From: Alphaproteobacteria bacterium
GTDB lineage: Bacteria > Pseudomonadota > Alphaproteobacteria > CAAHEQ01 > UBA3637
Length of the DNA: 60,283 nucleotides
NCBI GenBank assembly: GCA_045611665.1
Contig: JAZKXP010000006.1
Location: 1 to 60,283 of the forward strand
Direction: 5' to 3'
Of the stretch, positions 7,747 through 24,595 are shown in pieces. Position numbers and translations under genes: made by a program. Within the stretch, counting starts at the first letter, position 1; every line of letters begins with the position of its first letter. The notes beneath the pieces are model-generated. The model had not been told where the DNA came from. It saw nothing but the letters and a program-made list of their open reading frames with translations, and ran no database searches.

Positions 7747-7775
7747 TTGACTTTTGATTTTAAAAGGTATATATT
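7747..7775 (+). promoter_or_regulatory. sigma70-like promoter in a very AT-rich spacer
   Basis: TTGACT (7747-7752), 17-nt spacer, TATATT (7770-7775), about 115 nt upstream of the 7890 ORF. Confidence 0.4.
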
Positions 7776-7889
7776 TATTGCGATTTTTCGTTTTAAAAGG
7801 GAATTACAATTTAAAAGATTAAAAATTTGTAATAATTACAATGAATTAAATTAAAAAAACAACATCATTATAACAGAAGGGAAAAATAA

Positions 7890-8198: not shown

Positions 8199-8468
8199 TT
8201 ACTCATTCGGATTGTGACACACGATACGAGGGCTTAGTGCTCTACGGGCATTTAGTTGGTTATTAATTATCTCTCCGACTTTATTGTTATACACCCGCAT
8301 GCATCCGGTCCATTGACAATAACTGCTACATTTTCCAGATTGGCAGTAACTGGTTGGCGTACATTTTTGCCCATTTTGTGCTTCTACATCACAGACACCG
8401 ATAATTGCCAGCGTTCCCAACATTTCAACCATAGAACGACCAGATTGTAACGTGTGTTTCAAGTTCAT
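8199..8468 (-). CDS. mini-variant / deletion derivative of pilin-like Cys-rich family (sub-family B)
   Basis: The first 26 aa (MNLKHTLQSGRSMVEMLGTLAIIGV) and the 5' UTR are nearly identical to gene 16460. The hydrophobic helix is cut short and fused to one Cys-knot module and a C-terminal ...RIVCHNPNE tail. Its 3' flank/terminator resembles that of 45946..47385. Confidence 0.5.
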   Translation of the reverse strand: MNLKHTLQSGRSMVEMLGTLAIIGVCDVEAQNGQKCTPTSYCQSGKCSSYCQWTGCMRVYNNKVGEIINNQLNARRALSPRIVCHNPNE

Positions 8469-8490
8469 TTTTTACTCCTTTTTTTCGAAT

Positions 8491-8530
8491 TTTATCTGTC
8501 ATAAAAACGCCCCTTTTTATGACAGATAAA
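8491..8530. repeat. perfect 17-bp inverted repeat in shared 5' UTR (copy 1)
   Basis: TTTATCTGTCATAAAAA-CGCCCC-TTTTTATGACAGATAAA, about 25 nt upstream of the RBS of the minus-strand gene. Confidence 0.9.
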
Positions 8531-8668
8531 TTTTTTAATTGGACAAAGGTGAAAATTCAGCAATATTTCGACTCTATAAAAAAAAGGAACTCACCAGCCT
8601 AAGCCGGTAGTTTTCAAGATACAAAAATCCCCCTTAAATGAAGGGGGAATAACATATCTGACTGCAGT

Positions 8669-9610
8669 TTATTTCAAAAAGGCGTCAATGTCGTCAGGTG
8701 TTCCCAATGAAAATACCGGCACATCCGGATAAGTCTTTTTCACCAAACCAGCCAGCACCTTGCCATTACCGCACTCAACAAAACGGTTGATGCCCATATC
8801 ATCCACCATTTTATGCATGGAATCTGTCCACAAAACCGAACCGGTTACTTGACGCACCAATAATTCCTTAATTTGTTCAGCCTCTTGAACGGGTTCGGCA
8901 AATACATTGGAAATAACTGGAACAATCGGATTTTTTAGCGGTGTTTCGGCCAAAACTTCACGCATTTTATCGGCAGCTGATTGCATTAATGGACTATGGA
9001 ATCCACCGGAAACAGCTAATTTAATGGCTCGTTTAGCACCAGCGGCTTGACACCCGGCCATAACGGCTTCTAAGGCATCATTTTGACCACTAATCACAAT
9101 TTGTCCCGGACAGTTATCATTTGCCATGACACAAATTTGTCCTTTTAAATCCGTATTTGCAATCACCTCAGCAATTTGGTCTTTTGTCAGTGCCAAAATA
9201 GCGGCCATACCACCCACATTTTCTTTGGCAGCTTCGGCCATTGCCAAACCACGCAACCGCAATAATTTGGCCGTATCTGTAATGCTTAAAGCCCCTGCGG
9301 CACACAACGCCGTATATTCACCGAGTGAGTGTCCGGCAACGCAACCGGCTAATTCAAAAATATTTTTACCGGTTTCGGATTCCAATACTTTTAGAACAGC
9401 CATGCCGACTGCCATAATTGCCGGTTGAGCATTTTGCGTTTGCATTAATTCATCAGCATCCCCAGAAAACATTAATGTACTTAATTTTTGACCTAAGGCC
9501 TCATCTACTTCTTCAAAAACATGTTTTGCAACGGGAAAAGCCTCATTTAATGCCAATCCCATTCCGATACTTTGGGACCCTTGTCCCGGAAAAATCAAAG
9601 CCGTTTTCAT
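8669..9610 (-). CDS. fabD: malonyl-CoA:ACP transacylase
   Basis: FPGQGSQ N-terminus and GHSLGEY active-site motif; 313 aa. Confidence 0.9.
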   Translation of the reverse strand: MKTALIFPGQGSQSIGMGLALNEAFPVAKHVFEEVDEALGQKLSTLMFSGDADELMQTQNAQPAIMAVGMAVLKVLESETGKNIFELAGCVAGHSLGEYTALCAAGALSITDTAKLLRLRGLAMAEAAKENVGGMAAILALTKDQIAEVIANTDLKGQICVMANDNCPGQIVISGQNDALEAVMAGCQAAGAKRAIKLAVSGGFHSPLMQSAADKMREVLAETPLKNPIVPVISNVFAEPVQEAEQIKELLVRQVTGSVLWTDSMHKMVDDMGINRFVECGNGKVLAGLVKKTYPDVPVFSLGTPDDIDAFLK

Positions 9611-9724
9611 TTTTTCTCCTATATTTGTTAATTATCTTTCTCGGGGGCATTATACACATTTTTTTTCAAAAAGAAACCATTTTTTTAACTTGTCTAAAGA
9701 GGCTTTTTCATATATAGTGTCATC

Positions 9725-11305
9725 ATGTCATTAATAAAATCCATAACCACCGTTGGTGGCTTTACGCTTGTCAGCCGATTAGTCGGTTTTGTACGAGATA
9801 TTTTAATTGCCAAATTTTTAGGTGCCTCCATGATGGCGGATGCTTTTTTTGTCGCCCTGAGGTTTCCGAATTTGTTTCGATCCTTATTTGCCGAAGGAAC
9901 ACTGAATGTAGCGTTTGTTCCGCTGTTTGCCGGAGAACTGCACAGTGGCGGTAAAAAACGAGCGCTCACCTTTGCAAGAGCAACTTTCAGCTTTTTATTT
10001 TATGTGCTGTTGATTTTTACGGTCTTTATGGAAATCTTTATGCCGGCCTTTATGTTTGTGTTGGCGCCCGGATTTGAAGATATTGCCGGTAAATTAGAAC
10101 TCACCACACACTTAAGCCGGATTACTTTTCCGTTTTTGCTATGTGTTTCATTGGTGTCCTTATTGTCCGGTGTTTTAAATTCGGCCGGAAAATTTTGGGC
10201 GGCTGCCTTCACACCGACATTATTAAACTTAATGATGATTGGGGCGTTGTTTATCATTACACCGTTTATCCACAGTGATTTTGCACCGGCCTATGCTCTG
10301 GCAATCGGTGTCTGTTTGGCGGGTTTTGCCGAATTAATCTTCTTGTTTTACCATGTCAAAAAAGCCGGCCTGTTATTTGGTCTTATTGGTCCGATACGGG
10401 CGTTATTTCATTTATCCAAACGGGTCAAATTATTGCTGAAAAAAATGGCGCCGGGGGTGCTGGGATCCGGCGTTTATCAAATCAATTTATTCTTAGATAC
10501 GTTATTCGTTTCCTTTGTCGGGGCCGGTGCGATTTCATGGCTGAATTATGCGCATCATTTGTTCCAATTACCCATCGGTATTATCGGGGTTGCCATTGGG
10601 ACAGCCCTGTTGCCGGTTTTATCCAAACACATTAAAGCCGGCGAAAAACAAGAGGCCAATACTCAGTTGAACCGAGGCTTGGAAATTGCTCTTGCCATGT
10701 CTTTGGCTTCCATGATCGGGTTGGTATTATTGGCTCACCCCATCATTGCTGTTTTGTTTGAGCGAGGCGCCTTTACCATGACCGATACCGAACAAACGTC
10801 AAAGGCATTAATCGTATTTGCGTTTGGATTACCGGCCTATATGATGACTAAGGCATTATCGCCGTTTTTCTATGCTCGTTCCGATACAACAACACCGGTT
10901 AAAATTGCCGTTGTCGGTGTGATTTTAAATGCCGTATTGGCGCTTTCTTTAATGGGACCGTTAGGATTCGTCGGCATTGCCTTGGCCACTTCAATTACCG
11001 TTTGGGTCAATGCATTCCAATATATGTGGCGATTAAAAAAACAAGGCGAATTCAGTTTGGACAAACTCTTTATGTTCCGCATTAAACGCATTGTTTTAGC
11101 GGGTGTTTTAATGATGGGAACATTATATACGACGTTATTTTATATCTCAAAATGGTATCCGTTATGGCAACATGAACACGGTATTTTTTCGGTCATATGG
11201 TTGGGAATTTTGATTTGTTCCGGTGTTTTTGTTTTTGCGGCGACCTTAATTGGTACGGGTGGAATCGCCCTAAAGGACATTAAAGGATTTTTACGTCGAA
11301 CATAA
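9725..11305 (+). CDS. murJ: lipid II flippase MurJ (MviN)
   Basis: 526 aa, polytopic. N-terminus GGFTLVSRLVGFVRDILIAKFLGAS..DAFFVA.R.PN.FR is typical of MurJ. Confidence 0.9.
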   Translation: MSLIKSITTVGGFTLVSRLVGFVRDILIAKFLGASMMADAFFVALRFPNLFRSLFAEGTLNVAFVPLFAGELHSGGKKRALTFARATFSFLFYVLLIFTVFMEIFMPAFMFVLAPGFEDIAGKLELTTHLSRITFPFLLCVSLVSLLSGVLNSAGKFWAAAFTPTLLNLMMIGALFIITPFIHSDFAPAYALAIGVCLAGFAELIFLFYHVKKAGLLFGLIGPIRALFHLSKRVKLLLKKMAPGVLGSGVYQINLFLDTLFVSFVGAGAISWLNYAHHLFQLPIGIIGVAIGTALLPVLSKHIKAGEKQEANTQLNRGLEIALAMSLASMIGLVLLAHPIIAVLFERGAFTMTDTEQTSKALIVFAFGLPAYMMTKALSPFFYARSDTTTPVKIAVVGVILNAVLALSLMGPLGFVGIALATSITVWVNAFQYMWRLKKQGEFSLDKLFMFRIKRIVLAGVLMMGTLYTTLFYISKWYPLWQHEHGIFSVIWLGILICSGVFVFAATLIGTGGIALKDIKGFLRRT

Positions 11306-11316
11306 GAGGAGAATTT

Positions 11317-12240
11317 ATGAAAAAAATCATTTCATATTTGTTAGCCTGTGCGATTCTTGGGGGGATTTTCTACGGAACTTATCGACTGAATGTATGGATA
11401 AAAACACCGGAAAAAGAAACTCAAATATTATCGGATAACCGGCAACTCAAAACAAGTTTAGAGCAGACACATCATATTTCAAATTCTGTTATACCGACAG
11501 AACAGAACAATACCCCGCCATTGAGCAGTCACTCACATACAGCCGGAGAGTTGACGACGACACAGCAAGTAGCACAAAAAATGCAGACCGAATATAATCA
11601 TCATATTCGTAAGGTATATTTAGATCATTTTCCCGATGATTTTGTTCAAAACGGTACGCCGGAATTATTTGCTAAAATTGTGACGGCATTGGTATTGAGG
11701 GAAAATGAATTAATCAAAGCGGATCGACTTTTTTTAATACAATTACGTGCAAATTTTATGCAAAATATACCATGGGATGAAACACAAACAGCTAAATTTA
11801 ATCAGCTAATCAAACAGTACGGAATAACGGAACAAAAATTAATTCGTCCACAATTAGAAGAATTATTAAAGCGTGTCAACATAATACCGCCTTCTTTGGC
11901 CGTTGCAATGGCGGGGGTTCATACGAATTGGGGAAAACAGTCTTTAAACGCACCTTTTGGGCAAAAAGAATGGATAGATGGCAAATATACCGAAAAGGAA
12001 TTTGCAACGTTGCCTGAGGCAGTTCAAGCTTATATGGCGGAATTGAATACACTGCCGATTTATAACAGCCTATGGTTAAATCGTCATATATATCAAGATA
12101 TACGTGGGTCTTTGGGAGAAAAATTAGTAACACAAGTAAAAGATTTTAAGCCCGAAGATACATCCTATCGAGCTCGCTTAAAGCAAGCTTTTAAAGACAA
12201 ACAACTACGGAAATTGGATCGTGCGGTTTTATCTGACTAA
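11317..12240 (+). CDS. Bax-like glucosaminidase-domain protein
   Basis: N-terminal membrane anchor. The central/C-terminal region (FAKIVTALVLRENELI...SLAVAMAGVHTNWGK) resembles Bax / mannosyl-glycoprotein endo-beta-N-acetylglucosaminidase family proteins. Confidence 0.55.
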   Translation: MKKIISYLLACAILGGIFYGTYRLNVWIKTPEKETQILSDNRQLKTSLEQTHHISNSVIPTEQNNTPPLSSHSHTAGELTTTQQVAQKMQTEYNHHIRKVYLDHFPDDFVQNGTPELFAKIVTALVLRENELIKADRLFLIQLRANFMQNIPWDETQTAKFNQLIKQYGITEQKLIRPQLEELLKRVNIIPPSLAVAMAGVHTNWGKQSLNAPFGQKEWIDGKYTEKEFATLPEAVQAYMAELNTLPIYNSLWLNRHIYQDIRGSLGEKLVTQVKDFKPEDTSYRARLKQAFKDKQLRKLDRAVLSD

Positions 12241-12670
12241 AATTATTTTGGGGTGCTTTGTTTTTTTGTTTAGTCCCTGTGTATCGGCAGAGGAGTTGAT
12301 TTTTATGACTCCCGAAAAACATTATCTGTTTGATGTTGAGGTAGCTGACACCCCCAAAAAAGCTCAAACAGGTTTGATGTATCGTCAGCATTTAGACGCA
12401 AACAAGGGAATGATTTTTATTAAAGATACAGATCAAGTTTGGCATATGTGGATGAAAAATACATATTTAAGTTTAGATATGATATTTTTTAATCGTGACG
12501 GACGGATTATTAAAATCATTTCCGATACACGCCCGTTCAGCTTAGATATTTTATCGTCAGATATTCCGGTTGCGGGAGTAGTCGAGGTCAATGCCGGAAC
12601 GGCACAAAAATTGAATTTATCCATCGGTGATTATATTGATACGCCACACATTACGAAAAAATCAAAATAA
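12221..12670 (+). CDS. DUF192 (COG1430) periplasmic protein
   Basis: GTG start and signal peptide. EVADTP..QTGLMYR...GM.F.......MWMKNT..SLDMIFF...G.I matches DUF192. Confidence 0.7.
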   Translation: MRFYLTKIILGCFVFLFSPCVSAEELIFMTPEKHYLFDVEVADTPKKAQTGLMYRQHLDANKGMIFIKDTDQVWHMWMKNTYLSLDMIFFNRDGRIIKIISDTRPFSLDILSSDIPVAGVVEVNAGTAQKLNLSIGDYIDTPHITKKSK

Positions 12671-12671
12671 T

Positions 12672-14141
12672 CTAAATAAAACTGTCCTTTAACAATTGTT
12701 TTGTATAATCATTTTTCGGCGTATTAAAGATACGGGAGGCAAAATTTTGTTCAATGACTTTACCATCTTTCATAACTAAGACATAATCGGACAAAGCTTG
12801 TACCGCTTTCATATCGTGTGAGATAAAAATATAGGCCAGATTAAATCGTTTTTGTAAATCGGTTAATAAACGAATTAATTGACGCTGTGTTTTAACATCT
12901 AACGAGGAGGTGACTTCGTCTAACACCAATACGGACGGCTTTAAAATTAAGGCTCTGGCCAAAGCAACACGAGTGCGCTGACCGCCGGACAGTTCATGGG
13001 GATATCTGTCCACAATATCATCAGACAACCCAACGGATTTTAGGGTTTCTTTAACAGCGGGTAAGGTATCTTTGAGTCCTTGAACTTTCAGTCCTTCTCC
13101 GACAATATCGGCTATCATCATACGGGGATTTAATGAGGAGGCAGGATCTTGCAAAACCATTTGAATGTTTGACCGAGCCGTCCGTAATTCTTTGCCGGAC
13201 AAGGCAAAAAAATCCATGTCGTTGATTTTGACTGTGCCGGTTGCCGCAATTAATCTGACCAATCCTTGAGCTAATGATGATTTACCCGATCCGCTTTCCC
13301 CGACAACAGCAACGGTTTGAGAGGGCATAACTTTAAAATGAACATCTTTAACGGCTTGGAATTTTTGATAAAATACGGACAGACCATTAACTTCGATAGC
13401 CGGTTTTTGCCCCCTCACATAAGGGGTGTACCGTATCCATGGTCGCATAGGGGACGGCATTTGAGTTGACGTAATTTTACCGTATTGCATCACATACACA
13501 CGGTCGGCAATAGCCCGTACAATATCTAAATCATGTGTAATAAATAAAATGGCCAGTTTTAGTTCTTTTTGCAACCGTTTCAGCAAATCTAAAATTTGTG
13601 CCTGTACACTGACATCTAATGCGGTTGTCGGTTCATCGGCAATGAGTAAATCCGGTTTTCCGGCCAACGCCATAGCAATCATGACCCGTTGTCTTTGTCC
13701 GCCGGACAATTCGTGCGGATAAGCCTTATAAATACGCTCTGTATCGGTTAAATCAACTTGACGTAATAACGCACAAACAATTTCTTTTGAAACCGGTAAA
13801 TGATTAATTTTTAATACCTCAGCAATTTGAGCGCCGGCAGTATGAAGTGGATTTAATGATGTCATCGGTTCTTGGAAAATCATAGCAATTTTTGATGCTC
13901 TGAGTTGACGCAGTTTATCATCATTCATACATAAAATATTTTTACGTCTGAAAAAAATTTGTCCTTTAATACGTACATTATCTTGCAACCGTAAAATATT
14001 CATTGCTACGGTGGATTTTCCGGACCCGCTGGCGCCCACTAAAGCGACGAACTCACCACATTCTACGGATAAGGATACACCCTTGACTGGCATAAAAGAA
14101 CCAAAGGACACCCGCATTTTTTTGATATTCAGTAAACTCAT
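12672..14141 (-). CDS. yejF: peptide ABC transporter, fused double ATPase (YejF-like)
   Basis: Two ABC cassettes: Walker A GASGSGKST and GESGSGKSS; signatures LSGGQRQR and LSGGQRTR. Confidence 0.8.
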   Translation of the reverse strand: MSLLNIKKMRVSFGSFMPVKGVSLSVECGEFVALVGASGSGKSTVAMNILRLQDNVRIKGQIFFRRKNILCMNDDKLRQLRASKIAMIFQEPMTSLNPLHTAGAQIAEVLKINHLPVSKEIVCALLRQVDLTDTERIYKAYPHELSGGQRQRVMIAMALAGKPDLLIADEPTTALDVSVQAQILDLLKRLQKELKLAILFITHDLDIVRAIADRVYVMQYGKITSTQMPSPMRPWIRYTPYVRGQKPAIEVNGLSVFYQKFQAVKDVHFKVMPSQTVAVVGESGSGKSSLAQGLVRLIAATGTVKINDMDFFALSGKELRTARSNIQMVLQDPASSLNPRMMIADIVGEGLKVQGLKDTLPAVKETLKSVGLSDDIVDRYPHELSGGQRTRVALARALILKPSVLVLDEVTSSLDVKTQRQLIRLLTDLQKRFNLAYIFISHDMKAVQALSDYVLVMKDGKVIEQNFASRIFNTPKNDYTKQLLKDSFI

Positions 14142-15163
14142 GCGCTCTCCTTTTTATTTGGGTCAAATGCATCACGAACCCCTTCGCCGATGAAGACCAA
14201 CAAAGACAACAAAACGGTTAAGGTGAAAAAGGCCGTTAATCCCAACCAAGGAGCATTTAAGTTATCTTTTCCTTGCCTGATAAGTTCCCCTAAACTGGGT
14301 GTTCCGACCGGTAATCCCAATCCCAAAAAGTCCAATGCAGATAAAGAAATGATAGCGCCGGCTAACATAAACGGGACATAAGTGATTGTTGCAACCAAAG
14401 CATTAGGTAAAATGTGACGCAACATAATTTCAAAGTCGGTCAGACCTAATCCTCTGGCGGATTTAACATAATCTAAGCCTCGGGTGCGTAAAAATTCCGC
14501 ACGAACAACCCCTGTGAGAGAGGTCCAGCTGAATAACAGTAAGATCAATAAAATTGTCCAAAAACCGGGGGTGATTAAACTGGATATAATGATTAAAATA
14601 AACAGCTGAGGCAATGATCCCCATATTTCCAAAAAACGACCGATAAGTAAATCGGTGTATCCTCCGAAATATCCTTGTAATGCTCCGACAAAAATACCAA
14701 TCATTGCCGATAAAACAGTTAAAATAATCCCAAATATTAATCCTAATCGAACCGCATAAATCAAACGGGCCAAGACATCTCGCCCTTGATCATCCGTTCC
14801 CAACCAATGACGTTCGGAAGGCGGAGCCGGAACAGGGTCAACAGAAAAATAATCCACTGTATCATAATGCCATGGAATAATCGGCATAATCATCCATCCG
14901 TTTTTGTCAATTTCATTGATGGTATAGGCATCTTTAAAATCGGCCTGAGTCGGCAAATTACCCCCCATTTCAGTGTCGGTAATAAATTGTACCATTGGGA
15001 AATACCAAGATCCTTTATATGATACGACCAGCGGTTTATCATGAACCAACAAAGGAGCCAACAAACACAATAAGCCTATCATGCCTAACAAAATCAAAGC
15101 GCAAAGGCTGCGTTTATTAGATTTGAAAATATGGAGTCTTTTTTTTGCCAACTTTGAAATCAT
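14138..15163 (-). CDS. yejE: peptide ABC transporter permease (YejE-like)
   Basis: BPD-transporter inner-membrane component. Overlaps neighbours by 4 nt (operon). Confidence 0.8.
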   Translation of the reverse strand: MISKLAKKRLHIFKSNKRSLCALILLGMIGLLCLLAPLLVHDKPLVVSYKGSWYFPMVQFITDTEMGGNLPTQADFKDAYTINEIDKNGWMIMPIIPWHYDTVDYFSVDPVPAPPSERHWLGTDDQGRDVLARLIYAVRLGLIFGIILTVLSAMIGIFVGALQGYFGGYTDLLIGRFLEIWGSLPQLFILIIISSLITPGFWTILLILLLFSWTSLTGVVRAEFLRTRGLDYVKSARGLGLTDFEIMLRHILPNALVATITYVPFMLAGAIISLSALDFLGLGLPVGTPSLGELIRQGKDNLNAPWLGLTAFFTLTVLLSLLVFIGEGVRDAFDPNKKESA

Positions 15164-16260
15164 TTTAACCTCTTATCAAAATGAATTCTGGGATCAACAA
15201 GAGTATAAACAAAATCGCTGATAAGATTTAACACCAACCCAAGTAAAGCAAATAAATAAAGGGTGCCAAATACAACGGGATAGTCTCGAGTTTGAACCGC
15301 TTCAAAACCGAGCAAGCCCAACCCATTCAGCGAAAAAATAACCTCAATTAATACAGAACCGGTAAATAACATACTGACAAGCATTGCCGGAAAACCCGCA
15401 ATAACAATTAGCATGGCATTACGAAACACATGGCCGTATAAAATCTGACGATTATTTAATCCCTTTGCTTTAGCCGTGCGAACATAATTTTTCCCCAATT
15501 CATCCAAAAAAGCATTTTTGGTCAAAAAACACAATCCGGCCAATCCGCCGATTGTCATAGCCAATACGGGTAAGGTTAAATGCCACAAATAATCCAAAAT
15601 TTGTTGATAAAAGGGCAAGTTATCCCATCCGTTTGAGGTTAATCCTTTTAACGGGAACCAAGAAAAATATCGTCCTCCGGCAAAAACAATAATGAAAAAA
15701 ATGGCTAATAAAAAAGCGGGAACGGCATACCCTATCGTTAATGTCCAACTGGTTGCAATATCAAATTTTGATCCGTGTTTAACTGCTTTTCTGATGCCTA
15801 AAGGAATGGCTATCAGGTATATTAATAAGGTTGAAAAGACACCCAAAGAAATGGAAACCGGTAGCCGTTCTTTTATCAATTCTATAACGGATTTATCCTG
15901 ATAAAAACTGGTTCCAAAATCAAAAACGGCATAGTTTTTTATCATAATCCAAAAACGCACCCAAGCCGGTTTATCAAATCCGAATTGCTTAGTCAATTCA
16001 TCACGCAGTTGTTCATTTAATCCTTGGGCACCACGATATTTTGATGTATTTGAAACAGCAGGTGTCATGCTTTCCAGCCCTCCTGCCGTACCACTCACCC
16101 GTGATAAAGCACTTGAAGGAGCCGATGCGGTTATTTTGGTCATCATTTGTTCGACCGGCCCACCGGGGGCTAGTTGTACAAACAAAAAATTGACAGCCAT
16201 AATTCCGAATAATGTAATCGGAATAAATAACAGGCGTTTCAAAAAATATGCTTTATTCAT
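15160..16260 (-). CDS. yejB: peptide ABC transporter permease (YejB-like)
   Basis: ORF track 15160..16296. The internal ATG 16258-16260 (MNKAYFLKRLLFIP) matches the usual DppB/YejB N-terminus. Confidence 0.8.
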   Translation of the reverse strand: MNKAYFLKRLLFIPITLFGIMAVNFLFVQLAPGGPVEQMMTKITASAPSSALSRVSGTAGGLESMTPAVSNTSKYRGAQGLNEQLRDELTKQFGFDKPAWVRFWIMIKNYAVFDFGTSFYQDKSVIELIKERLPVSISLGVFSTLLIYLIAIPLGIRKAVKHGSKFDIATSWTLTIGYAVPAFLLAIFFIIVFAGGRYFSWFPLKGLTSNGWDNLPFYQQILDYLWHLTLPVLAMTIGGLAGLCFLTKNAFLDELGKNYVRTAKAKGLNNRQILYGHVFRNAMLIVIAGFPAMLVSMLFTGSVLIEVIFSLNGLGLLGFEAVQTRDYPVVFGTLYLFALLGLVLNLISDFVYTLVDPRIHFDKRLK

Positions 16261-16398
16261 GACAAACAGTATGGCATATTTACTCCCAAAAAGCAAGCCT
16301 GAAAAGCCGGTAATTGTACTTGCGGTTTATCCCACCTTTTGAATTAAAATCTCCTTAAAATTCCATTGGCATTTTTTTAGGGGAGATTTATTTTAAAA

Positions 16399-16438
16399 TT
16401 TATCTGTCATAAAAAGGGGCGTTTTTATGACAGATAAA
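16399..16438. repeat. perfect 17-bp inverted repeat in shared 5' UTR (copy 2)
   Basis: TTTATCTGTCATAAAAA-GGGGCG-TTTTTATGACAGATAAA, followed by ATTCGAAAAAAGGAGTAAAAA-ATG. Confidence 0.9.
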
Positions 16439-16459
16439 ATTCGAAAAAAGGAGTAAAAA

Positions 16460-17473
16460 ATGAACTTGAAACACACGTTACAATCTGGTCGTTCTATGGT
16501 TGAAATGTTGGGAACGCTGGCGATTATCGGTGTTCTGTCTGTCGGTGGTATTGTTGGATATTCCTACGGTATGGATAAATATTGGGCGAATGAAACAATT
16601 AATGATGTGAATATGCGAGGTATTGATTTAGTGCGTCAAGTTGCCACGAATCAAGCCCCTGATTTATCCGATTGGCCCACTGTATCACAAGCCGGATATA
16701 CCATCAGTGAGGCCAATTTAAGCGCCGATGGTGAGGCCTATTTTAGTATTTCGGGTATGTCTCAACGTGTGTGCGAAATGGTTTATGAGGGGATTCAAAA
16801 CAACCAAACGACCGTCGTCAAAATTAACGAATCAACAAACGGAGATACCTCTGATTGTCAATCCGACAATAACACCATGACATTTTTCTTTGTAACAACG
16901 GCTGGGGGTGGTGGTGTAAAACCAGAAGATTTGTGTCAAAATGTCACCTGTCAAGAAGGATATTCTTGTACCCATGGGATTTGTATGAGTGAGATGCTTC
17001 CTCAATTCCATTCTAATGGATTTAAATATTGTTCTTCTAGTTTTCAATGTTCGGAATGTCAATATTGCCATAGTGAGTGGCAATATTGTGAAAGTAATGA
17101 TAATGGAACGGTGTGTGCCGGTGGAACGTGTTATAATGGAAAATGTGTTTTGAATGAGGATATCTGTACATCTCATGATGATTGTGCCAAGGGGTACTTC
17201 TGTGATAAGGGAGATTCTAATAAATGTGTTAAATTAGATTGGTATAAAATTCCAGGTAATGATATTTATATTTCTAAAGTAGCTACTGAAGATGATTTAT
17301 GTGAATTAGCTGGTTTTTACTCTTTAACAAAAGCACAAATGATGTATGTTGTCAAGGAACTTGGGGATTCTATTGTCTCTTATAGCGCTTATTTGCATAC
17401 CAGTGATGCCGGTGGTTGTGATAGGGATGATATGGTGGCAGTCCAGCCAATTCGTTGTGTGTTCCCGATTTAA
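16460..17473 (+). CDS. Cys-rich protein with type IV pilin-like class III signal (sub-family B)
   Basis: MNLKHTLQSG|RSMVEMLGTLAIIGVLSVGGIVGYSYG. Pilin-like head (..RVCEMVYEG..TMTFFF), then EGF/knottin-like CxxGxxC modules. 21 Cys. Confidence 0.8.
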   Translation: MNLKHTLQSGRSMVEMLGTLAIIGVLSVGGIVGYSYGMDKYWANETINDVNMRGIDLVRQVATNQAPDLSDWPTVSQAGYTISEANLSADGEAYFSISGMSQRVCEMVYEGIQNNQTTVVKINESTNGDTSDCQSDNNTMTFFFVTTAGGGGVKPEDLCQNVTCQEGYSCTHGICMSEMLPQFHSNGFKYCSSSFQCSECQYCHSEWQYCESNDNGTVCAGGTCYNGKCVLNEDICTSHDDCAKGYFCDKGDSNKCVKLDWYKIPGNDIYISKVATEDDLCELAGFYSLTKAQMMYVVKELGDSIVSYSAYLHTSDAGGCDRDDMVAVQPIRCVFPI

Positions 17474-17632
17474 ACAATGTTGAAATATTAGATTTTTCAG
17501 TAGCTCTAGAAGAAACGGTTACTGAGTAAATTTCGTTTTCATATAAGTAACAGGAATAATTTTCCTCTTGTTATTTATTTCACAAAAAAACCGCCTCATT
17601 TGGGGCGGTTTCAAATATTTTGTAAATCTATG

Positions 17633-18193
17633 TTATTTTGGGGACATCATCATCGCCATTTGACGACCATCCATTTTGGGTTCTTGATCCACTTTGGCAA
17701 CATCCTCTAATTCGGATTTGGCACGGCGTAAAACCTCCATCCCCAAATCCACATAGCTCATTTCACGGCCACGGAAACGTAACGTAAATTTGACTTTGTT
17801 TCCTTCTTCCAAAAAGCGTTTAGCAGAACGCATTTTTACGGAATAATCGTTATCCCCGATATTGGGCGTAAATTTGATTTCTTTGGTTTCTTGAACCTTT
17901 TGTTTTTTCTTAGCCTCGGCTTTACGTTTTTGCATTTCGTATTTGTATTTGCCGGAATCTAAAACTTTACAAACGGGAATTTCTCCGTTCGGAGCGATTT
18001 CAATTAAATCCAATCCAAGTTCTGAAGCTCGGCGAATGGCTTCGCTGGTTGGGACAACCCCCACATTTTCACCGTCAGACAAAATCAATCTGACTTTAGG
18101 TGATGTAATTTGCTCGTTAATACGTGGTCCGTCTTTGGAAGCGGCACCGGCTTGATTAGAGCTTGATAAATTCGGTTTAATGATATCCTCCAT
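17633..18193 (-). CDS. infC: translation initiation factor IF-3
   Basis: RINEQITSPKVRLI...GVV....A...A...GLDL..I. IF3 N- and C-domains; 186 aa. Confidence 0.9.
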   Translation of the reverse strand: MEDIIKPNLSSSNQAGAASKDGPRINEQITSPKVRLILSDGENVGVVPTSEAIRRASELGLDLIEIAPNGEIPVCKVLDSGKYKYEMQKRKAEAKKKQKVQETKEIKFTPNIGDNDYSVKMRSAKRFLEEGNKVKFTLRFRGREMSYVDLGMEVLRRAKSELEDVAKVDQEPKMDGRQMAMMMSPK

Positions 18194-18267
18194 AAAAAAA
18201 TTGAAACTAACGCTATTTTACACATTTTTTTGAAGACAATCAAGTTTTTTTTTGTTATAGTGAGGGT

Positions 18268-20190
18268 ATGATACGTATTTTTTTAATGTTTTTTGCGTTA
18301 ATGTGGGCCAATTTGGTGTTTGCCGAACAAAACCAAGGCGCTGACGTTCCTGTTTCTGAGGCGGCTTCGGTTGCGGTTGATCCCAGTTTGCTTTCTCCGA
18401 CAGAGGAGATTGTATATCAAGCGGCAAAGCATGTTTTTATGCCGTTAAAAAATTGGATGGCTCAAGTTCGGCAGATGGACACCGAAAAAGTTAATATCAA
18501 AGCAGTTGACAACCCATTGACGGCTTTGTATTTAATGACGACATCTGAGGTGAATCCTTTAACAGGCACACGTGGGTATGGTGAGTGGAAAACTTATCCT
18601 TTCGGACGTATGCGTTTGGTCTCTTGTAATGCCGGATTGGTTGAAAACGAACCTGCTTTTGTCGGAATACAAGCGCAAATCCATTCGGATTGGGCATTGT
18701 ATAAACCCAATATCATATTGACCACACCGGCGCGAGAAACGGTTATTTCGTATCCGCTGTCTTTAAAGTTGCCCAAAGGCATAACACGTACTTTTTTATA
18801 TGACGGAGATACGGTTTTTCCTGTCTTTTTTATGCCGGAAGCTTTTGATAAAGCGCTGGATGTTTCTGTGACAGTAGAGTGGCGAGCTTTAAACCCTTAT
18901 ACAAAAAAAGATATCTTTGGAACTGATTTATTTCAAATCAAATTAACGCCGGAAAAGGCTTATGAAACAGGTATTTGTCCGTATATGATGTCTTTTTTGT
19001 CTGTTTCTCCTGCTCCGGTCAGGGATAATTTAACGTTATCGGCGACAGTTAATGCCTATAATCAAGTCCAGTTGTTTTTTGAATTTAAGCAGGTAACAGA
19101 TGATGTATCTGTTCAGATTGATGATGAGTGGACATTTGTTGAGGAGAAAAAAAATGTAAAAGGAAAAGTGGCTGAAATGGTCATTATGCCTTCTCGTATG
19201 CTACATGAGGGAGATGTGTTGCCTGTAAAGGTGATAACTTCCTATGGTATATATGATGTGCCGACGGTTTTAAAATCAGGTAATTTTTATCAAGATACCC
19301 CTGCTTTTGATTGGATGGGAATTTTGATTGCGGGTGTTGGTTTGTTCTTTTTAACCCCATTGTTTCCTTACTTTTTGGCACATGCAAAAAGCAATGCCGA
19401 ACAGGTCAAAAAAGATGCCGGACAAACACTGATATTTTTAAGTGTAACCGGTATTATATGGACGCTTGCATGGCAGGCGGGTTTGGTTCCTGTCATAGAT
19501 TTGGTTCAACACAGTCAGATTATATTTTGGCTGACGGTAGGGGGACTGATTTGGTGGTTATTGCGTCCCGGTTTGTCATTAGGGGCGGTGGGTGTATTAA
19601 TTGTCTTTTTGCCAAAGCCTTATTTAACGGACGTTGCCGGATTGGTAACGTATTATTCTTTTGCTCCGGTGGTTATCGGCGGTATGTTGACTGTGATGAT
19701 GATGTATCCTTTTTGGTGGATATATCGTTATCCCGATATTTTTGTGATATTTCATCAAATGAGTCAAAAAGATACTAAGGCTGTTTTTTGGTTGACACGA
19801 TTGCCCGCACTCGTGTTACTGATATGGTTGATTTTAGGTGGGATGGTTTCGTCAGACTCTTTACCCTATACGGCTCGTGCTGTCAGACAAGCGGTGTCCG
19901 ACGGGCAAGTGGTTTTTGTGTCGGTCGAACCGCCGGTGTGTTTGAGTTGTCGTTTTTTGCAAACCAGTTTTGCTATGTCACGGACAATGCGCCGCTTAAA
20001 GGATGAAAACGGTCTTATTCAGATGACTGCACCGCTTGAGTCGTTTGACGGAAAAGAACTGATGAAATATTACGCCCAAACATCTGTACCTCTTAATGTG
20101 CTATATGGACCGAAAAATCCTAACGGGATTATAATTCCGGCCTATGTGGATTATGCCGAATTGAATGACTATTTGGATTTTGTTAAATAA
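18268..20190 (+). CDS. DsbD/ScsB-like membrane protein (divergent; thioredoxin-like C-terminus)
   Basis: Signal peptide, large periplasmic N-domain, ~8 TM segments and a C-terminal domain with VFVSVEPPVCLSCRF (CxxC). The TM block contains no Cys. Confidence 0.45.
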   Translation: MIRIFLMFFALMWANLVFAEQNQGADVPVSEAASVAVDPSLLSPTEEIVYQAAKHVFMPLKNWMAQVRQMDTEKVNIKAVDNPLTALYLMTTSEVNPLTGTRGYGEWKTYPFGRMRLVSCNAGLVENEPAFVGIQAQIHSDWALYKPNIILTTPARETVISYPLSLKLPKGITRTFLYDGDTVFPVFFMPEAFDKALDVSVTVEWRALNPYTKKDIFGTDLFQIKLTPEKAYETGICPYMMSFLSVSPAPVRDNLTLSATVNAYNQVQLFFEFKQVTDDVSVQIDDEWTFVEEKKNVKGKVAEMVIMPSRMLHEGDVLPVKVITSYGIYDVPTVLKSGNFYQDTPAFDWMGILIAGVGLFFLTPLFPYFLAHAKSNAEQVKKDAGQTLIFLSVTGIIWTLAWQAGLVPVIDLVQHSQIIFWLTVGGLIWWLLRPGLSLGAVGVLIVFLPKPYLTDVAGLVTYYSFAPVVIGGMLTVMMMYPFWWIYRYPDIFVIFHQMSQKDTKAVFWLTRLPALVLLIWLILGGMVSSDSLPYTARAVRQAVSDGQVVFVSVEPPVCLSCRFLQTSFAMSRTMRRLKDENGLIQMTAPLESFDGKELMKYYAQTSVPLNVLYGPKNPNGIIIPAYVDYAELNDYLDFVK

Positions 20191-20649
20191 TTATCGGCAC
20201 ATTAATAAATCAGGGCTATATGTATCACGTTGTTCGCAAGCCAGTTTATCCACCAGTTCATTCATCGGATGGCCGGCGTGTCCTTTGACCCAAGTCCAGC
20301 TGACATGATGTTGGGACAGCGCTTCATCTAAAGCAATCCATAAATCTTGGTTGAGAACAGCTTTTTTATCGGCCTTTTTCCAACCACGTTTTTTCCATCC
20401 GTCTAACCATTTTGTGGCGCCTTCCAACACATATTTACTGTCGGTGAAAATATGCACCTGACATGTTTCTTTTAAATGTTTTAATCCTTCAATGACGGCG
20501 GTTAATTCCATGCGATTATTTGTTGTTTGCGACTCGCCGCCGGCAAACTGCTTCATGGACTCTTTGTAAATCAAAACGCATGCCCAACCGCCAGGACCCG
20601 GATTACCGGAGCACGCGCCGTCAGTATATAATTCAATTTGTTTCATCAC
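20191..20649 (-). CDS. rnhA: ribonuclease HI
   Basis: YTDGACSGNPGPGGWA...ELTA...DSKY...W.....H.GH..NE..D.LA catalytic DEDD context. Confidence 0.9.
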   Translation of the reverse strand: MMKQIELYTDGACSGNPGPGGWACVLIYKESMKQFAGGESQTTNNRMELTAVIEGLKHLKETCQVHIFTDSKYVLEGATKWLDGWKKRGWKKADKKAVLNQDLWIALDEALSQHHVSWTWVKGHAGHPMNELVDKLACEQRDTYSPDLLMCR

Positions 20650-20656
20650 TAGACTT

Positions 20657-20842
20657 TTAGGCGCTGAGTTGTTGTTCTTCGTAAGCGGCTTCTGCTATTT
20701 TGTTTTCACTGAACCAAACGCGTTCAGAAAATTCCGATTTTTTCCCTTTGTTAAAGTGGCTGACCGGACGGAAATATCCCATCACTCTGGTCCAACATTC
20801 TACCGGTTGACGTTCTTCATCTTTTAAAATGATTTCACTCAT
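20657..20842 (-). CDS. small protein with NrdD C-terminal glycyl-radical-like signature
   Basis: 61 aa. TRVMGYFRPVSHFNKGKKSEFSERV parallels the NrdD C-terminus pattern RVxGY......FNxGKxxExxxRV (recalled from E. coli NrdD). Confidence 0.55.
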   Translation of the reverse strand: MSEIILKDEERQPVECWTRVMGYFRPVSHFNKGKKSEFSERVWFSENKIAEAAYEEQQLSA

Positions 20843-21001
20843 AATGGCCTCCTGTTTTTTGTTTTATGAGCTTTTGCCCCTTACAGATTCATTGTACCTT
20901 CAAAATTATGTATAAATGGTTAAAAGGAATACGATTTTTAAAATTATTTTTTAATGTGTTGATTCTAATGAAAAACCGCCCTAAAACAGAGCGGTTTAAT
21001 A

Positions 21002-21955
21002 TTACATAGGCAAAGTGTATAAATAATAATTATACACGGCATAGGCGGCCAAAAAAGCGAATCCGATGGGTCTGGAAAATCTTTTTTGCCATAAGGCTAT
21101 TCCGATTAAAATGGCCGTTATAATGGTCATTAGCCAAATATCTGTTCCCATGCCGATAGGAACCGAAATCGGTAAGAAAACTGCCGTTGTCCCCAAAATA
21201 AATAACGCATTATAAATATTGGATCCGACAACGTTTCCGAAAGCCACATCATTATGGCCCCGAATACCACTCATAACCGAGGTGGCCAATTCGGGTAGGG
21301 AAGTGCCGACCGCTACAATGGTTAAGCCGATGACGGCTTCGGATACGCCCCAAGAGCGAGCCAAAATAATGGAATTATCGACCAACAATTTGGCTCCTAA
21401 CATCATGAGGGCTATTCCACCGATGGCTTTAACCAAGGCTAACCATGTCGGCATAAGTACTTCTTGTTTTGTATCGGATGTATCTGTATTTTTGGCCCGT
21501 GTTTTTGATGTTTGTTTTTTGTCGGTAATATAAGAATAGATAATGTATCCGATTAACATTGCCACTAAAACGCCCCCCATGATGCGTCCGATTTGTCCCA
21601 AAAATAAAGCCAATATTAACATCACGCAAGATAAGGCCAAAAAGGTACCATCACGTTTAAAAGCCTTTATATCTACATTTACCGGAGCAATAACGGCCGC
21701 CATGCCCAACACCAATAAAATATTAGCGATATTGGACCCAACCACGTTTCCCAAAGCAATATCATTAGATCCTTTAATGGCGGCCAATAAACTGGTGAGT
21801 AATTCCGGTGTGGATGTTCCAAATCCCACCAATGTTAACCCGATGAGCAAGGTGGAAATCCCTATTTTTTTAGCCAATGCTACAGCGCCGGAGACCATGG
21901 TATCTCCGCCAAAGGCCAATAAACATAATCCTAAAATCAATAAAACATAAATCAT
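21002..21955 (-). CDS. Ca2+/Na+ antiporter (CaCA / YrbG family)
   Basis: Two alpha-repeats GNVVGSNIANILLVLG and GNVVGSNIYNALFILG; about 10 TM. Confidence 0.85.
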   Translation of the reverse strand: MIYVLLILGLCLLAFGGDTMVSGAVALAKKIGISTLLIGLTLVGFGTSTPELLTSLLAAIKGSNDIALGNVVGSNIANILLVLGMAAVIAPVNVDIKAFKRDGTFLALSCVMLILALFLGQIGRIMGGVLVAMLIGYIIYSYITDKKQTSKTRAKNTDTSDTKQEVLMPTWLALVKAIGGIALMMLGAKLLVDNSIILARSWGVSEAVIGLTIVAVGTSLPELATSVMSGIRGHNDVAFGNVVGSNIYNALFILGTTAVFLPISVPIGMGTDIWLMTIITAILIGIALWQKRFSRPIGFAFLAAYAVYNYYLYTLPM

Positions 21956-22154
21956 TTTTTATCCTTTCATAAATAATGTCGCCTTTATACACGAAAAAAA
22001 GAAAAAAATCCACCCTCTTGTTTATGACATATTTGTGACACAATGAATACATAAATATGACATTTGACATAATGGGGTATGGCTTTCTCTATCCTTATAT
22101 ATCATAATATGCTAAGAAAAACGCGTTTGTATAACTCAGAAATAGGAGATTTCT

Positions 22155-23414
22155 ATGAAAAAAATATCAAGTGCTTTGGCAATCGCTGCCGTTTTAGGCT
22201 TCAGCGTACAAGCCAATGCTGCCGGTTATCAATTAACTGAATATTCAACAACCGGTTTAGGTCGTTCTTTTGCAGGCGCTGGTTTGGTCGGCGATGACTA
22301 TTCTGCTGTTGCTTATAACCCAGCTGGTATGAGCTACACAACACGTAATGGTGCTCAACTTGGTTTTTCCACAGTTGGTATTCGTTCCACAGCAAAAGGA
22401 ACAGCCGGTACAACATCCGGTAAGGAAAGCCCGTACATTGTGCGTGTTTTACCACATGGTTTTGCTCAATACAGATTAAATGACAGAACTGTTTTAGGTT
22501 TGGGTATTTACACACCGTTTGGTTTGGCAACAGACTATAAAAATGGTTGGTTTGGTAAAACACATGCCGGTCGCAGTGAAATTCAAACAGTCAACGTATC
22601 TCCGGCTTTGTCCGTTAATGTAACGGATTCCATTGCTTTGGGTGCCAGTGTGAACTTGCAACATGCTCGTGCTGATTTGACAAGTGAAGTGGAAGCACAA
22701 GGACAGTATCTTGGAGGTAAAGCCCACTTGCGTGGTCATGACACTTCTTTGGGATACACATTGGGTGCTACATGGGAACCGGTAAAAAATAAAACACGTT
22801 TAGGTGTTTCCTATCGTTCAAAAGTTGTCCACGATTTAAAAGGTAAAAACACAGTGTCTGATGCAGGGATGTTATATAGGCTGTTTGATCTCAATGGCAC
22901 TAACAATATTCATACAAAAATTACAACACCAGAAACTGTGACATTGTCCGCTTGGCAACGTTTGACAGATAAATGGAGTGTTTCTGCCACTGCTCGTTGG
23001 ACACGTTGGAGTCAATTTAAGGATTTAAATATTTATTATGATGAACCGCATCCGGTGACTCATTTAACAGTGACTTCTGCAACACATGAACACTGGCGCA
23101 ACACTTGGTTCTATTCTTTGGGTGCCGATTACCAATACTGTAAAAATTTGATTTTCCGTTTTGGTGGGGCTTATGACCAATCCGTTGTGAAAGGTCCTGA
23201 ATACAGAACAGCCCGAATTCCTGACGGTCGTCGGATTTGGACATCTTTGGGTTTCAGTTATATGAAAAACAACTGGCAATTGGATGGTGGGTATGCTCAC
23301 TTATTCGTGAAAGATGTGAAAGCCAGACATAAAAGTGAAGGTATGTCAGACTTTGATGCGAAGTATTCTTCCAATGCCAATTTGTTCAGTTTAGCTGTTC
23401 AATACAAATTCTAA
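22155..23414 (+). CDS. fadL: FadL/OMPP1/TodX-family outer-membrane hydrophobic-compound channel
   Basis: Signal peptide, N-terminal AGYQLTEYSTTGLGRSFAG hatch motif, beta-barrel pattern, C-terminal ...LAVQYKF. Confidence 0.8.
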   Translation: MKKISSALAIAAVLGFSVQANAAGYQLTEYSTTGLGRSFAGAGLVGDDYSAVAYNPAGMSYTTRNGAQLGFSTVGIRSTAKGTAGTTSGKESPYIVRVLPHGFAQYRLNDRTVLGLGIYTPFGLATDYKNGWFGKTHAGRSEIQTVNVSPALSVNVTDSIALGASVNLQHARADLTSEVEAQGQYLGGKAHLRGHDTSLGYTLGATWEPVKNKTRLGVSYRSKVVHDLKGKNTVSDAGMLYRLFDLNGTNNIHTKITTPETVTLSAWQRLTDKWSVSATARWTRWSQFKDLNIYYDEPHPVTHLTVTSATHEHWRNTWFYSLGADYQYCKNLIFRFGGAYDQSVVKGPEYRTARIPDGRRIWTSLGFSYMKNNWQLDGGYAHLFVKDVKARHKSEGMSDFDAKYSSNANLFSLAVQYKF

Positions 23415-23605: not shown

Positions 23606-24499
23606 ATGAATTCTAAATCAACTCATACACATACAGCAAAAGAAGAAGTTTGCAAAACATCTGCTTGCAAGTGCGGTGAAGATTGCAAGTGCTGTGAAAC
23701 ATCTTGCTGTTCTAAATTTTTAATGCCGGCTACTGTTTTGGCCAGTGCTATTTTGATTTCCGGTTCTATTTTGGCAGTGGCTTTTGACGGTCCGTGTGCT
23801 CGTAGAGTAAAGTCAATGAAAGACAAAGGAATGCGTCAAGAACAAGTTATTCATGATTATATCGTGAAAAATCCGAAAGTATTGATTGACACAGTTGAAA
23901 AATACTATGAAGAACAACGTAAAGCCGAAGCTAAAAAAGCTCCGCAAAAACCTGCTCCGCAAGCCGAAGCCGATAAAACTTTGGTTGACGAAATTTTGAA
24001 TGACAAAACGAATCATGTTTTGGGTAACCCAAAAGGTAAATTTGTTATCATTGAATTCTTTGATTATCAATGTGGTTGGTGTAAACGTACCAATAAAGAA
24101 ATTTCTGCAGTGTTGAAAGATGCTCCGAATATTCGTTGGGTTTTGATTGATACACCGATTTTTGGCGAAGCCAGTGAACAAATTGCTCGCTATGCCATGG
24201 CTGCCGGTAAACAAGGTAAATTTAAAGAATATCATGAAGCTATCGGTAATGCCAAAGGTAAATTGGATAAAGATGCCTTGATTAAATTAGGTCGTGATTT
24301 GAAACTTAACACAAAACGTTTGACTGCCGATGCCGAAAGTCAAGAAGTTAAGGATAAAATGGCTAAAAATCAAAAATATGCTCGTCAGTTGAATATTAAC
24401 GGCGTGCCGATGTTGATTGTTGACGGTAAAATTAATCCGGGTGCTTTAATCGGCGACAGATTGGCTGATGCCGTAGCAGCTTCTAAAGCTAAAAAATAA
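23606..24499 (+). CDS. DsbA-family thiol:disulfide oxidoreductase with Cys-rich cytoplasmic N-terminus and membrane anchor
   Basis: DsbA fold with CGWC active site (FFDYQCGWCK). N-terminus CKTSACKCGEDCKCCETSCC (9 Cys in 21 aa) precedes one TM helix. Confidence 0.8.
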   Translation: MNSKSTHTHTAKEEVCKTSACKCGEDCKCCETSCCSKFLMPATVLASAILISGSILAVAFDGPCARRVKSMKDKGMRQEQVIHDYIVKNPKVLIDTVEKYYEEQRKAEAKKAPQKPAPQAEADKTLVDEILNDKTNHVLGNPKGKFVIIEFFDYQCGWCKRTNKEISAVLKDAPNIRWVLIDTPIFGEASEQIARYAMAAGKQGKFKEYHEAIGNAKGKLDKDALIKLGRDLKLNTKRLTADAESQEVKDKMAKNQKYARQLNINGVPMLIVDGKINPGALIGDRLADAVAASKAKK

Positions 24500-24595
24500 T
24501 TCTGTTAGCTTGTCCATAGACAGAGGGGATTTTTTCCTCTCTGTTTTTTTTGTTGTATATTGCATTTTAATTCAAAAGGCCGTAGAATAACTTTG

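Follow-up and report, generated by a model that had tools for sequence, protein, structure and literature searches.

Why should three separate genes in one segment of a bacterial chromosome begin with the same long, perfect palindrome? The question arises in a 60,283-nt stretch of DNA from an Alphaproteobacteria bacterium (contig JAZKXP010000006.1; hereafter the window), in which a 40-bp palindrome, a short 5′ untranslated region (UTR), a ribosome-binding site (RBS) and the first 25-50 codons form a module shared by three genes of a pilin-like, Cys-rich family. To our knowledge, nothing is known of how this very large family is regulated. The original prediction had left three roles open for the palindrome, namely an operator, an mRNA element or a recombination site. 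We conclude with moderate confidence that it is the core site of a site-specific DNA-inversion system that serves as a family-specific switch. The palindrome would then be a probable member of the inverton or site-specific inversion class, in a lineage and a gene family that are new for this class.

The palindromes and the conserved UTR lie in the window as follows.

16399-16438: palindromic site A, the proposed recombinase core, with arms at 16399-16415 and 16422-16438 around the asymmetric spacer GGGGCG (16416-16421).
8491-8530: palindromic site B, with arms at 8491-8507 and 8514-8530 around a spacer that reads CGCCCC on the plus strand; inverted relative to site A.
59678-59717: palindromic site C, with arms at 59678-59694 and 59701-59717 around the spacer GGGTCG; in the orientation of site A.
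16439-16459, plus strand: conserved short 5′ UTR, with the RBS GGAG at 16450-16453, 6 nt ahead of the ATG.

All three sites have a 17-6-17 build, in which the arm TTTATCTGTCATAAAAA is followed by a 6-bp spacer and then by the reverse complement of the arm. The arms and spacer of site B are the same as those of site A, its spacer reading GGGGCG toward its minus-strand gene, and site C has a single arm mismatch, A>G at 59706. Over four copies of the site the spacer varies (GGGGCG twice, GGGTCG, GGGCCG) and the arms are otherwise invariant. A lox-type core site consists of inverted arms around an asymmetric spacer of 6-8 bp, and this is the build that we found, with GGGGCG or GGGTCG in the center. 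Each palindrome runs into a UTR of 21-23 nt made of ATTCG, 6-8 A, GGAG and TAAAAA, which leads to the ATG (at 16460, at 8468 on the minus strand and at 59741), and the codons that the copies share after the ATG begin MNLKHTLQSGRSMVEML....

The original prediction held the module to be nearly identical at 16399 (+), 8530 (−) and 59678 (+), and both an arm search and alignment bear this out. Searching for the 17-mer arm with up to 2 mismatches gave 7 matches against 0.02 expected; the seventh (26954, 2 mismatches) was discarded as an ordinary terminator. The full module occurs in these three copies and nowhere else in the window. The copy from 16395 and the reverse complement of the copy from 8534 are identical at 118 of 120 positions and diverge beyond codon 25, and the copy from 59674 is ~92% identical, with homology persisting to about codon 50. 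The homology among the copies starts just 3-4 nt upstream of the left arm, and the three upstream flanks are unrelated: a divergent promoter region of an ATP-binding cassette (ABC) permease gene, the fabD terminator region and the thrS terminator region. In RNA, the 17-bp stem (3/17 pairs GC) is present in the minimum-free-energy fold with z = −5.7, and the RBS is free, not sequestered. The view that the palindrome is not a terminator holds on the sense strand, where a scan of 16150-16600 found no terminator-like site, but not on the antisense strand, where a T-run follows the palindrome at 8491-8530 and at 59678; only the one at 8491-8530 passes the terminator scan. Searches of Rfam, with the window at gathering thresholds and with the module at E ≤ 1, returned only spurious miRNA-hairpin matches far below threshold.

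The genes behind the three palindromes are the following.

16460-17473, plus strand: intact family gene of 337 aa, with a prepilin-like N-terminus (G/RSMVEMLG), a pilin-like head and Cys-rich C-terminal modules.
8199-8468, minus strand: truncated family gene of 89 aa, with the UTR, RBS and first 25 codons as in the 16460 gene, then a short Cys-rich tail.
59741-60094, plus strand: truncated family open reading frame (ORF) of 117 aa, family-like for ~50 codons, to about 59890, the remainder being unrelated.

Only the gene at 16460-17473 is intact, and the 89-aa gene is likely a relic or a silent copy. The coding sequences behind the modules do differ, as had been predicted, but mainly because two of them are truncated (the ORFs of 89 and 117 aa). 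The motif G-R-S-M-V-E, a class III (prepilin-type) signal followed by a hydrophobic helix, is found in six ORFs of the window, and the signal reads G/RSMVEMLGTLAIIGVLSVG. The prepilin-type profile TIGR02532 scored 18.5 bits on the 59741 copy against a cut-off of 16.3, this being the one copy that passes. An AlphaFold (AF2) model of the 337-aa protein shows a long N-terminal helix and a beta-sheet head, with a predicted local distance difference test (pLDDT) score of 66.7, and its best 8 matches in the PDB are all type IV pilins, although these matches are weak (probability 0.5-0.98, E 0.02-0.3). The C-terminal halves of the family proteins are Cys-rich. By signal, helix and predicted fold, then, the module-bearing genes are type-IV-pilin-like surface-protein genes. 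No prepilin peptidase or pilus machinery was found in the window. A homology search returned more than 2000 relatives of the family, all from metagenome-assembled genomes (MAGs) of uncultured gut or rumen Alphaproteobacteria.

The evidence that carries our reading comes from relatives of these genes, here given L numbers by locus. Two further contigs (L003 and L004), from the same metagenome as the contig JAEIGA010023630.1 (L001/L002) treated below, each carry a pair of palindromes that are separated by ~154 bp and immediately precede the same UTR and RBS; the genes concerned are two other members of the family. Both contigs have GGGTCG as distal spacer and its reverse complement, CGACCC, as proximal spacer. 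When the 148-nt interior of L003 is aligned to the reverse-complemented interior of L004, the score is 235, with 100% identity over ~90 nt, against 23 for the direct alignment, and the outer flanks of the two loci align directly. Moreover, two types of arm end can be distinguished, ..GATAAAA and ..GAC. The palindromes of L003 are each symmetric, and those of L004 are each outer/inner hybrids, which means that the inner arms moved together with the cassette and that the breakpoints lie between the arms, at the palindrome centers. Judged from sequence, this pattern is the one produced by recombination in the central spacer of lox-type sites, not by the flipping of a whole element such as a miniature inverted-repeat transposable element (MITE).

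The two cassette orientations also differ in what they present to the gene. In L003 an extended −10-like motif, TGTTAAAAT, is directed at the gene, and a similar motif occurs in L070. In the orientation of L004, CTTTGTTTTGTTGTTTTT follows the distal hairpin and is terminator-like toward the gene, which is not so in the orientation of L003. Thus, either promoter inversion or a terminator like that of cwpV could give the ON and OFF states. The gene-proximal site of a complete switch lies 35-65 nt ahead of the ATG.

In other MAG species, too, pairs of sites stand shortly before the RBS (L018, L019, L020, L032 and L035, with gaps of 115-127 bp), and L070 has a shorter cassette of 67 bp with the site ATGTCCGAAAAAAGGGATCCC.. 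twice. The sites have diverged: in L018 and L019 they read GTTACAAAAA-GGTTCC/GGAACC-TTT.., one site having the spacer of the other in flipped form, L020 has TTTATCTGTCTGTAATAAAAGGGACG as its left site, which resembles the arm of the window, and L035 has CAAAAACGATCGTTTTTG twice. The diverged arms nevertheless share (G/T)T(A/C)A(C/T)AAAAA, giving the core (G/T)T(A/C)A(C/T)AAAAA-N6-TTTTT with an A5-N6-T5 center. The two-site layout of an inverton was found in L003, L004, L091, L018, L019, L020, L035 and L070. An inverted repeat in L047 (gap 113) was left out as a different kind of sequence. At 1-350 of L032 there are two divergent 5′ ends of family genes with 109-bp inverted arms (site, UTR and 14 codons), and the 115-bp segment between these arms contains TTGATT-18-TATAAT. 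L032 may be a toggle between two genes or an assembly hairpin artifact; we give the 109-bp arms little weight because they lie at a contig end, where such an artifact is possible. We also noticed, at 60021-60036 of the window, a further copy of the 10-nt outer end of the arm, TTTATCTGTCTTTGTC, located where the unrelated remainder of the 59741 ORF comes to its end; an identical 11-mer opens the left site of L020. This may be a degenerate half-site or a chance match.

The site is tied almost exclusively to this family. We counted motifs in 806 kb, comprising the window and 93 loci, and a species-level survey of GTDB species representatives covered ~85 family genes in 80 loci. With perfect arms of at least 14 bp and gaps of 30-450 bp, 13 inverted-repeat pairs were found, of which 8 lie within 200 nt upstream of family genes, 7 of these 8 having gaps of 115-127 bp. 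The core motif has 12 matches, 11 of them upstream of family genes, and all other long palindromes at these loci are ordinary terminators with an A-run, GC stem and T-run. A longer palindrome pattern had 0 matches in a scan of species-representative genomes, and a shorter core pattern, scanned against metagenomes, was found in three contigs only, all from one assembly and all with the palindrome upstream of family genes. The original prediction would have been undermined if the palindrome occurred at many unrelated loci like a generic repetitive extragenic palindromic (REP) element or MITE. The three copies in 60 kb are all at family genes, as are 11 of the 12 core matches, and therefore a generic REP or MITE is not what we see.

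Inversion at the module can also be seen on a larger scale, between sites B and A.

8531-16398: block of 7.9 kb delimited by sites B and A; in the related contig L001/L002 its orientation is reversed with respect to the flanks.
16366-16394, plus strand: sigma-70-like match TTGGCA-17-TATTTT, inside the block and 5 nt before site A; a consensus match only.

The block holds housekeeping genes only, namely fabD, murJ, a glucosaminidase-like gene, DUF192, an ABC ATPase and two ABC permeases. Sites A and B, with identical spacers in mutually inverted orientation, bracket it; site C, whose spacer differs in one base, is in direct orientation relative to site A. The contig L001/L002 is ~94.5% identical to the window. 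Its positions 1-2025 correspond to window 10415..8391 reversed and 1880-8034 to window 16396..22552 forward, and fabD stands directly upstream of the orthologue of the 337-aa gene. From these alignments it follows that the block is inverted relative to the window and that the junction falls within the shared module of ~146 bp. The orthologue in L001 has a frameshift and a TAG stop, and its first 50 codons are closer to the truncated 59678 copy than to the 16460 gene of the window, so that the modules are mosaic. As for the 59741 ORF itself, its first ~50 codons (59741-59890) are closer to L001 1946-2093 than is the 5′ end of the 16460 gene (93.5% over 217 nt). This fragment is immediately preceded by thrS, and the 16460 gene is immediately followed by infC; this placement, together with the resemblance of the 59741 ORF to the L001 allele, suggests an older rearrangement that split one gene.

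The option of a recombination site, one of those raised by the original prediction, is thus favored both by the inversion junction in the module of L001 and by the crossover at the palindrome centers of L003 and L004. The form in which it was put, the exchange of C-terminal cassettes behind a constant expression module, does not hold: the crossover lies upstream of the RBS, and therefore the exchanged DNA is what lies upstream of whole genes, on the promoter or terminator side.

In the mechanism that we propose, a recombinase would bind the two 17-bp arms and cross over in the 6-bp asymmetric spacer, in a system used by a subset of the pilin-like family. A complete switch would consist of two sites with opposite spacer orientation around an AT-rich cassette of ~115 bp, and a flip of the cassette would switch expression of the gene, in that a promoter would change its orientation or a T-tract would come to stand behind the distal hairpin and complete a terminator. 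Such flipping may be reversible and would then amount to phase variation. The window genes, with one site each and no cassette, would represent a reduced state; their single sites match a distal outer arm and spacer joined to a proximal outer arm and UTR, as would arise by deletion of the cassette between two directly repeated arms, and they would still be complete core sites. Inversion between B and A would give the 337-aa gene and the 89-aa relic each other's upstream DNA, on the promoter side. The sigma-70-like match stands beside site A and we found no comparable match beside site B on the strand of its gene, so that the inversion could move a promoter between the two genes. The rest of the module (UTR, RBS and the codons for the signal peptide and N-terminal helix) would be kept alike by recombination among paralogues and gene conversion.

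Several observations weigh against this reading. In the window, no site has a partner within 500 bp, and the two-site layout of an inverton is absent there; because, in addition, two of the three genes are broken, the window copies may be dead remnants. When the L003 and L004 genes were followed into other samples through their orthologues, none of the loci turned up in both orientations: L091 is oriented like L003, L092 has the switch deleted and L090, L093 and L094 have a different 5′ module, and L003 and L004 are themselves different genes. (In L092, at 640-720, the whole switch of the L003 gene is deleted and the distal left arm is joined to GGAGTAAAAAATG at an AAAAAGG microhomology.) The spacers of L035 (CGATCG) and L070 (GGATCC) are symmetric, which would give a tyrosine recombinase no directionality. 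Promoter predictions in the cassettes were no better than in shuffled sequence. The 7.9-kb inversion is known from one metagenome contig, in which the ~146-bp repeat is a possible point of chimerism or mis-joining, and neither a metagenome scan nor exact look-ups of the 337-aa, 89-aa and fabD proteins found the reciprocal junction. Finally, Pfam searches found no recombinase, integrase or transposase among about 50 genes of the window and no recombinase among 10 neighbors of the switch loci, and a motif scan of all loci found none beside any switch. The only two recombinases near family genes are in L006 and L065, and neither locus has the palindrome: L006 encodes a XerC/D-like tyrosine recombinase directly upstream of a family gene (1273-2253, plus strand), and L065 a Hin-like serine invertase with Resolvase and HTH_7 domains (4132-4725, minus strand), divergent from a family gene in a mobile-element-like context. 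A dedicated invertase may be encoded elsewhere in the genome.

Some of these points are what one would expect if homologous recombination alone were at work, the ~146-bp modules being paralogous repeats for RecA-type inversion or gene conversion and the palindrome a part of the UTR with a structural or cis-regulatory function. For the 7.9-kb inversion, the junction can be located only to within the 146-bp module, the module of L001 is a mosaic that resembles the 59678 copy, and a recombinase is lacking in the window and beside the switch loci. In L090, L093 and L094, furthermore, gene bodies more than 90% identical to those of L003 and L004 sit on a different 5′ module with the breakpoint in the GRSMVEMLG region, one partner having no palindrome. 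These cases make it clear that the conserved N-terminal coding region undergoes homologous recombination, and the 7.9-kb inversion could therefore be RecA-mediated. As an account of the whole, however, we consider it unlikely: the L003/L004 inversion has merely the ~17-bp arms as homology and its breakpoints lie at the palindrome centers, the two-site layout of ~115 bp with flipped spacers is conserved across species despite the divergence of the sites themselves, and the homology among the copies begins at the palindrome edge. An operator, bound by a dimeric transcription factor and, when paired around a promoter, repressing by looping, is improbable. The perfect dyad would suit it, as would the partial conservation of the arm sequence itself across species, (G/T)T(A/C)A(C/T)AAAAA, and the position of two sites around an AT-rich, promoter-sized segment, with the proximal one between the segment and the RBS. 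It leaves unexplained, however, why both cassette orientations occur with swapped inner arms, why the asymmetric spacers are flipped and why there is an inversion at the module; 17-bp arms are also long for an operator half-site, and no regulator gene is linked to the loci.

The stable stem in the minimum-free-energy fold raises the possibility of an RNA element, a 5′-UTR hairpin that stabilizes the mRNA or modulates translation, or that acts in antisense as a terminator or insulator. The sigma-70-like match 5 nt before site A could place the hairpin at the 5′ end of the mRNA, the arm change at 59706 leaves a U-G wobble, and the antisense T-run is there at 8491-8530 and 59678. Yet the fold leaves the RBS free, the three copies have unrelated promoter regions ahead of them, compensatory changes were not seen (in L004 one C-G pair is accompanied by one C-A mismatch), Rfam has no matching family and the inversions would be left without explanation, so that we regard this account as decidedly improbable. 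Very improbable, in our judgment, is a mobile or repetitive element, with the palindrome or the ~190-bp two-palindrome unit inserted in the manner of a MITE or of REP sequences and their paired form, REPIN. Such a unit does resemble an element of ~186 bp that ends in inverted repeats of 32 bp, it is oriented differently at different loci and it is sporadic among orthologues; but its core matches stand, 11 times out of 12, upstream of family genes and fused to the same UTR, with few or no matches in the wider scans, the outer/inner hybrid palindromes of L004 show that the whole unit did not flip, and no transposase or REP-associated tyrosine transposase (RAYT) gene was seen. Site-specific inversion at the palindrome remains our preferred reading, and an operator or mRNA-hairpin role could coexist with it.

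The palindrome is one of two control modules used by the family. Many family genes have upstream a conserved leader of ~185 nt, found in the window at ~31360-31545 (+) and ~47400-47610 (−), and also in L006 (2290-2480), L090 (1690-1880), L093 (4790-4980) and L094 (95-290). It is composed of the blocks CCGAGGT..CCTCTTT, CTTTCCGGC.T.GGCTGGAAGGCGGCAAAATAG, GGTCAATAT.CC.CACTAT and ACTTCCAG; after these come a terminator hairpin with its T-run and then the RBS. Rfam gave no match to this leader, even at E ≤ 1, and it resembles an undescribed riboswitch or attenuator. The original prediction regarded palindrome and leader as alternatives, and comparisons with L090, L093 and L094 support this: orthologous bodies, 85-97% identical or clustering together at 90% identity, have the switch in some samples and the leader RNA in others (L003/L091 versus L090, and L004 versus L093/L094), the upstream genes differing as well. 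In L090, L093 and L094 the breakpoint between the 5′ modules is inside the GRSMVEMLG codons, a conserved coding region, and the 5′ control modules are therefore interchangeable by homologous recombination. A third type of orthologue, in L085/L086, has a plain promoter.

It is tempting, though quite doubtful, to extend the proposed inversion system to a dispersed, genome-wide "promoter shufflon", in which one unlinked recombinase would act on the sites of many scattered pilin-like genes, by local flips of ~115 bp and by inversions of kb to tens of kb that include essential genes, with the ~185-nt riboswitch-like leader as an interchangeable second layer.

Two further observations concern the family proteins. 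In the gene at 45946-47385, ~140 nt (47226-47385, minus strand) are inserted between the start codon and G/RSMVE, with the translation LLDTGEGHQYDRK...SLGRSETKTRG; comparable odd N-terminal extensions are present in P0013, P0014, P0016, P0022 and P0029. In 45946-47385 the extension probably stems from non-coding sequence, or from a small repeat, that was translated as part of the ORF. Genes for a DsbA-like protein and a LysM-M23 peptidase lie near family genes both in the window (23606-25453) and in a distant MAG (L032, 1297-3076); a periplasmic disulfide oxidoreductase would suit the Cys-rich family proteins.

These Alphaproteobacteria, resembling "Acetobacter sp. CAG:977", are common in human and ruminant guts, are uncultured and are known from MAGs only. 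In the literature that we searched on invertons in Alphaproteobacteria and on pilins of this clade we found no description of this system. If our reading is right, they would vary a surface structure by phase variation as Bacteroides and mycoplasmas do, with a distinctive lox-like site, and would extend the known cases of surface-protein switching in gut bacteria to a further lineage and gene family. An arm-N6-arm palindrome beside GGAG would be a simple sequence tag for finding switchable genes, and the site would let ON/OFF ratios be read directly from metagenomic reads. Genome assemblies from these bacteria may contain rearrangements or wrong joins at modules of this type.

Our working analogy is with invertons, such as fimS of E. 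coli (FimB/FimE), flgB and cwpV of Clostridioides difficile (RecV), the Mpi promoters of Bacteroides and mpl of M. penetrans. Like these, L003, L004, L018, L020, L035 and L070 have a short segment between inverted sites directly upstream of a surface-structure gene, the segment of an inverton being 100-300 bp. In cwpV a T-tract is turned into a terminator tail in one orientation, to which the orientation of L004 bears a likeness. Unlike invertons, the window has single sites with the cassette missing, each site is built as a long, perfect 17-6-17 palindrome where invertons have a simple inverted-repeat arm, and no recombinase is linked to it; the lineage, uncultured gut Alphaproteobacteria, and the pilin-like, Cys-rich family also differ from those of described invertons. 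In Mycoplasma penetrans, the many members of the mpl family are dispersed and each has its own switch (PMC2268961).

Multigene inversion systems of other mycoplasmas, all with tyrosine recombinases, offer a second comparison: vpma of M. agalactiae (Xer1), vsp of M. bovis (Mbr) and vsa of M. pulmonis (HvsR). The vpma genes have a conserved 5′ UTR and signal-peptide region, with the Xer1 site at −1 to −72 from the start codon, and inversions between sites move the promoter side among genes with variable bodies (PMC2268961). As in vpma and vsp, a conserved 5′ UTR and signal-peptide module holds the site here, and the inversion between 8530 and 16399 is of the same kind. Unlike vpma, which is a clustered locus with a single promoter and an adjacent xer1, the genes studied here lie 8-51 kb apart among housekeeping genes, neighboring copies being separated by 8 and 43 kb, with no adjacent recombinase.

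As for the site itself, loxP (13-8-13), FRT and dif (11-6-11) likewise have two inverted arms around an asymmetric spacer of 6-8 bp. In sites of this type the orientation of the spacer decides between inversion and deletion, and the arms of dif contain CATAA/TTATG, as do the arms here. Unlike lox, FRT and dif, the arms here are 17 bp long and perfectly symmetric, with A5/T5 tracts beside the spacer, and two relatives have symmetric spacers; the enzyme may be a serine invertase instead of a tyrosine recombinase.

The closest analogue of the 7.9-kb event is sapA of Campylobacter fetus, where a RecA-dependent inversion of multiple kb, other genes included, between conserved 5′ regions of ~600 bp moves a promoter between opposed surface-protein paralogues, and where, as here, the conserved region starts upstream of the ORF. 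Unlike in sapA, the conserved region here is ~146 bp and starts with a lox-like palindrome, and the small cassettes of the relatives are not explicable by homologous recombination. Genes of the pilin type are also diversified by inversion, with a constant N-terminal part, in the R64 shufflon (Rci, acting on PilV C-termini) and by Piv of Moraxella (tfpQ/tfpI). In those two systems the crossover lies in the coding region and swaps C-termini, whereas here it lies upstream of the RBS and involves whole genes.

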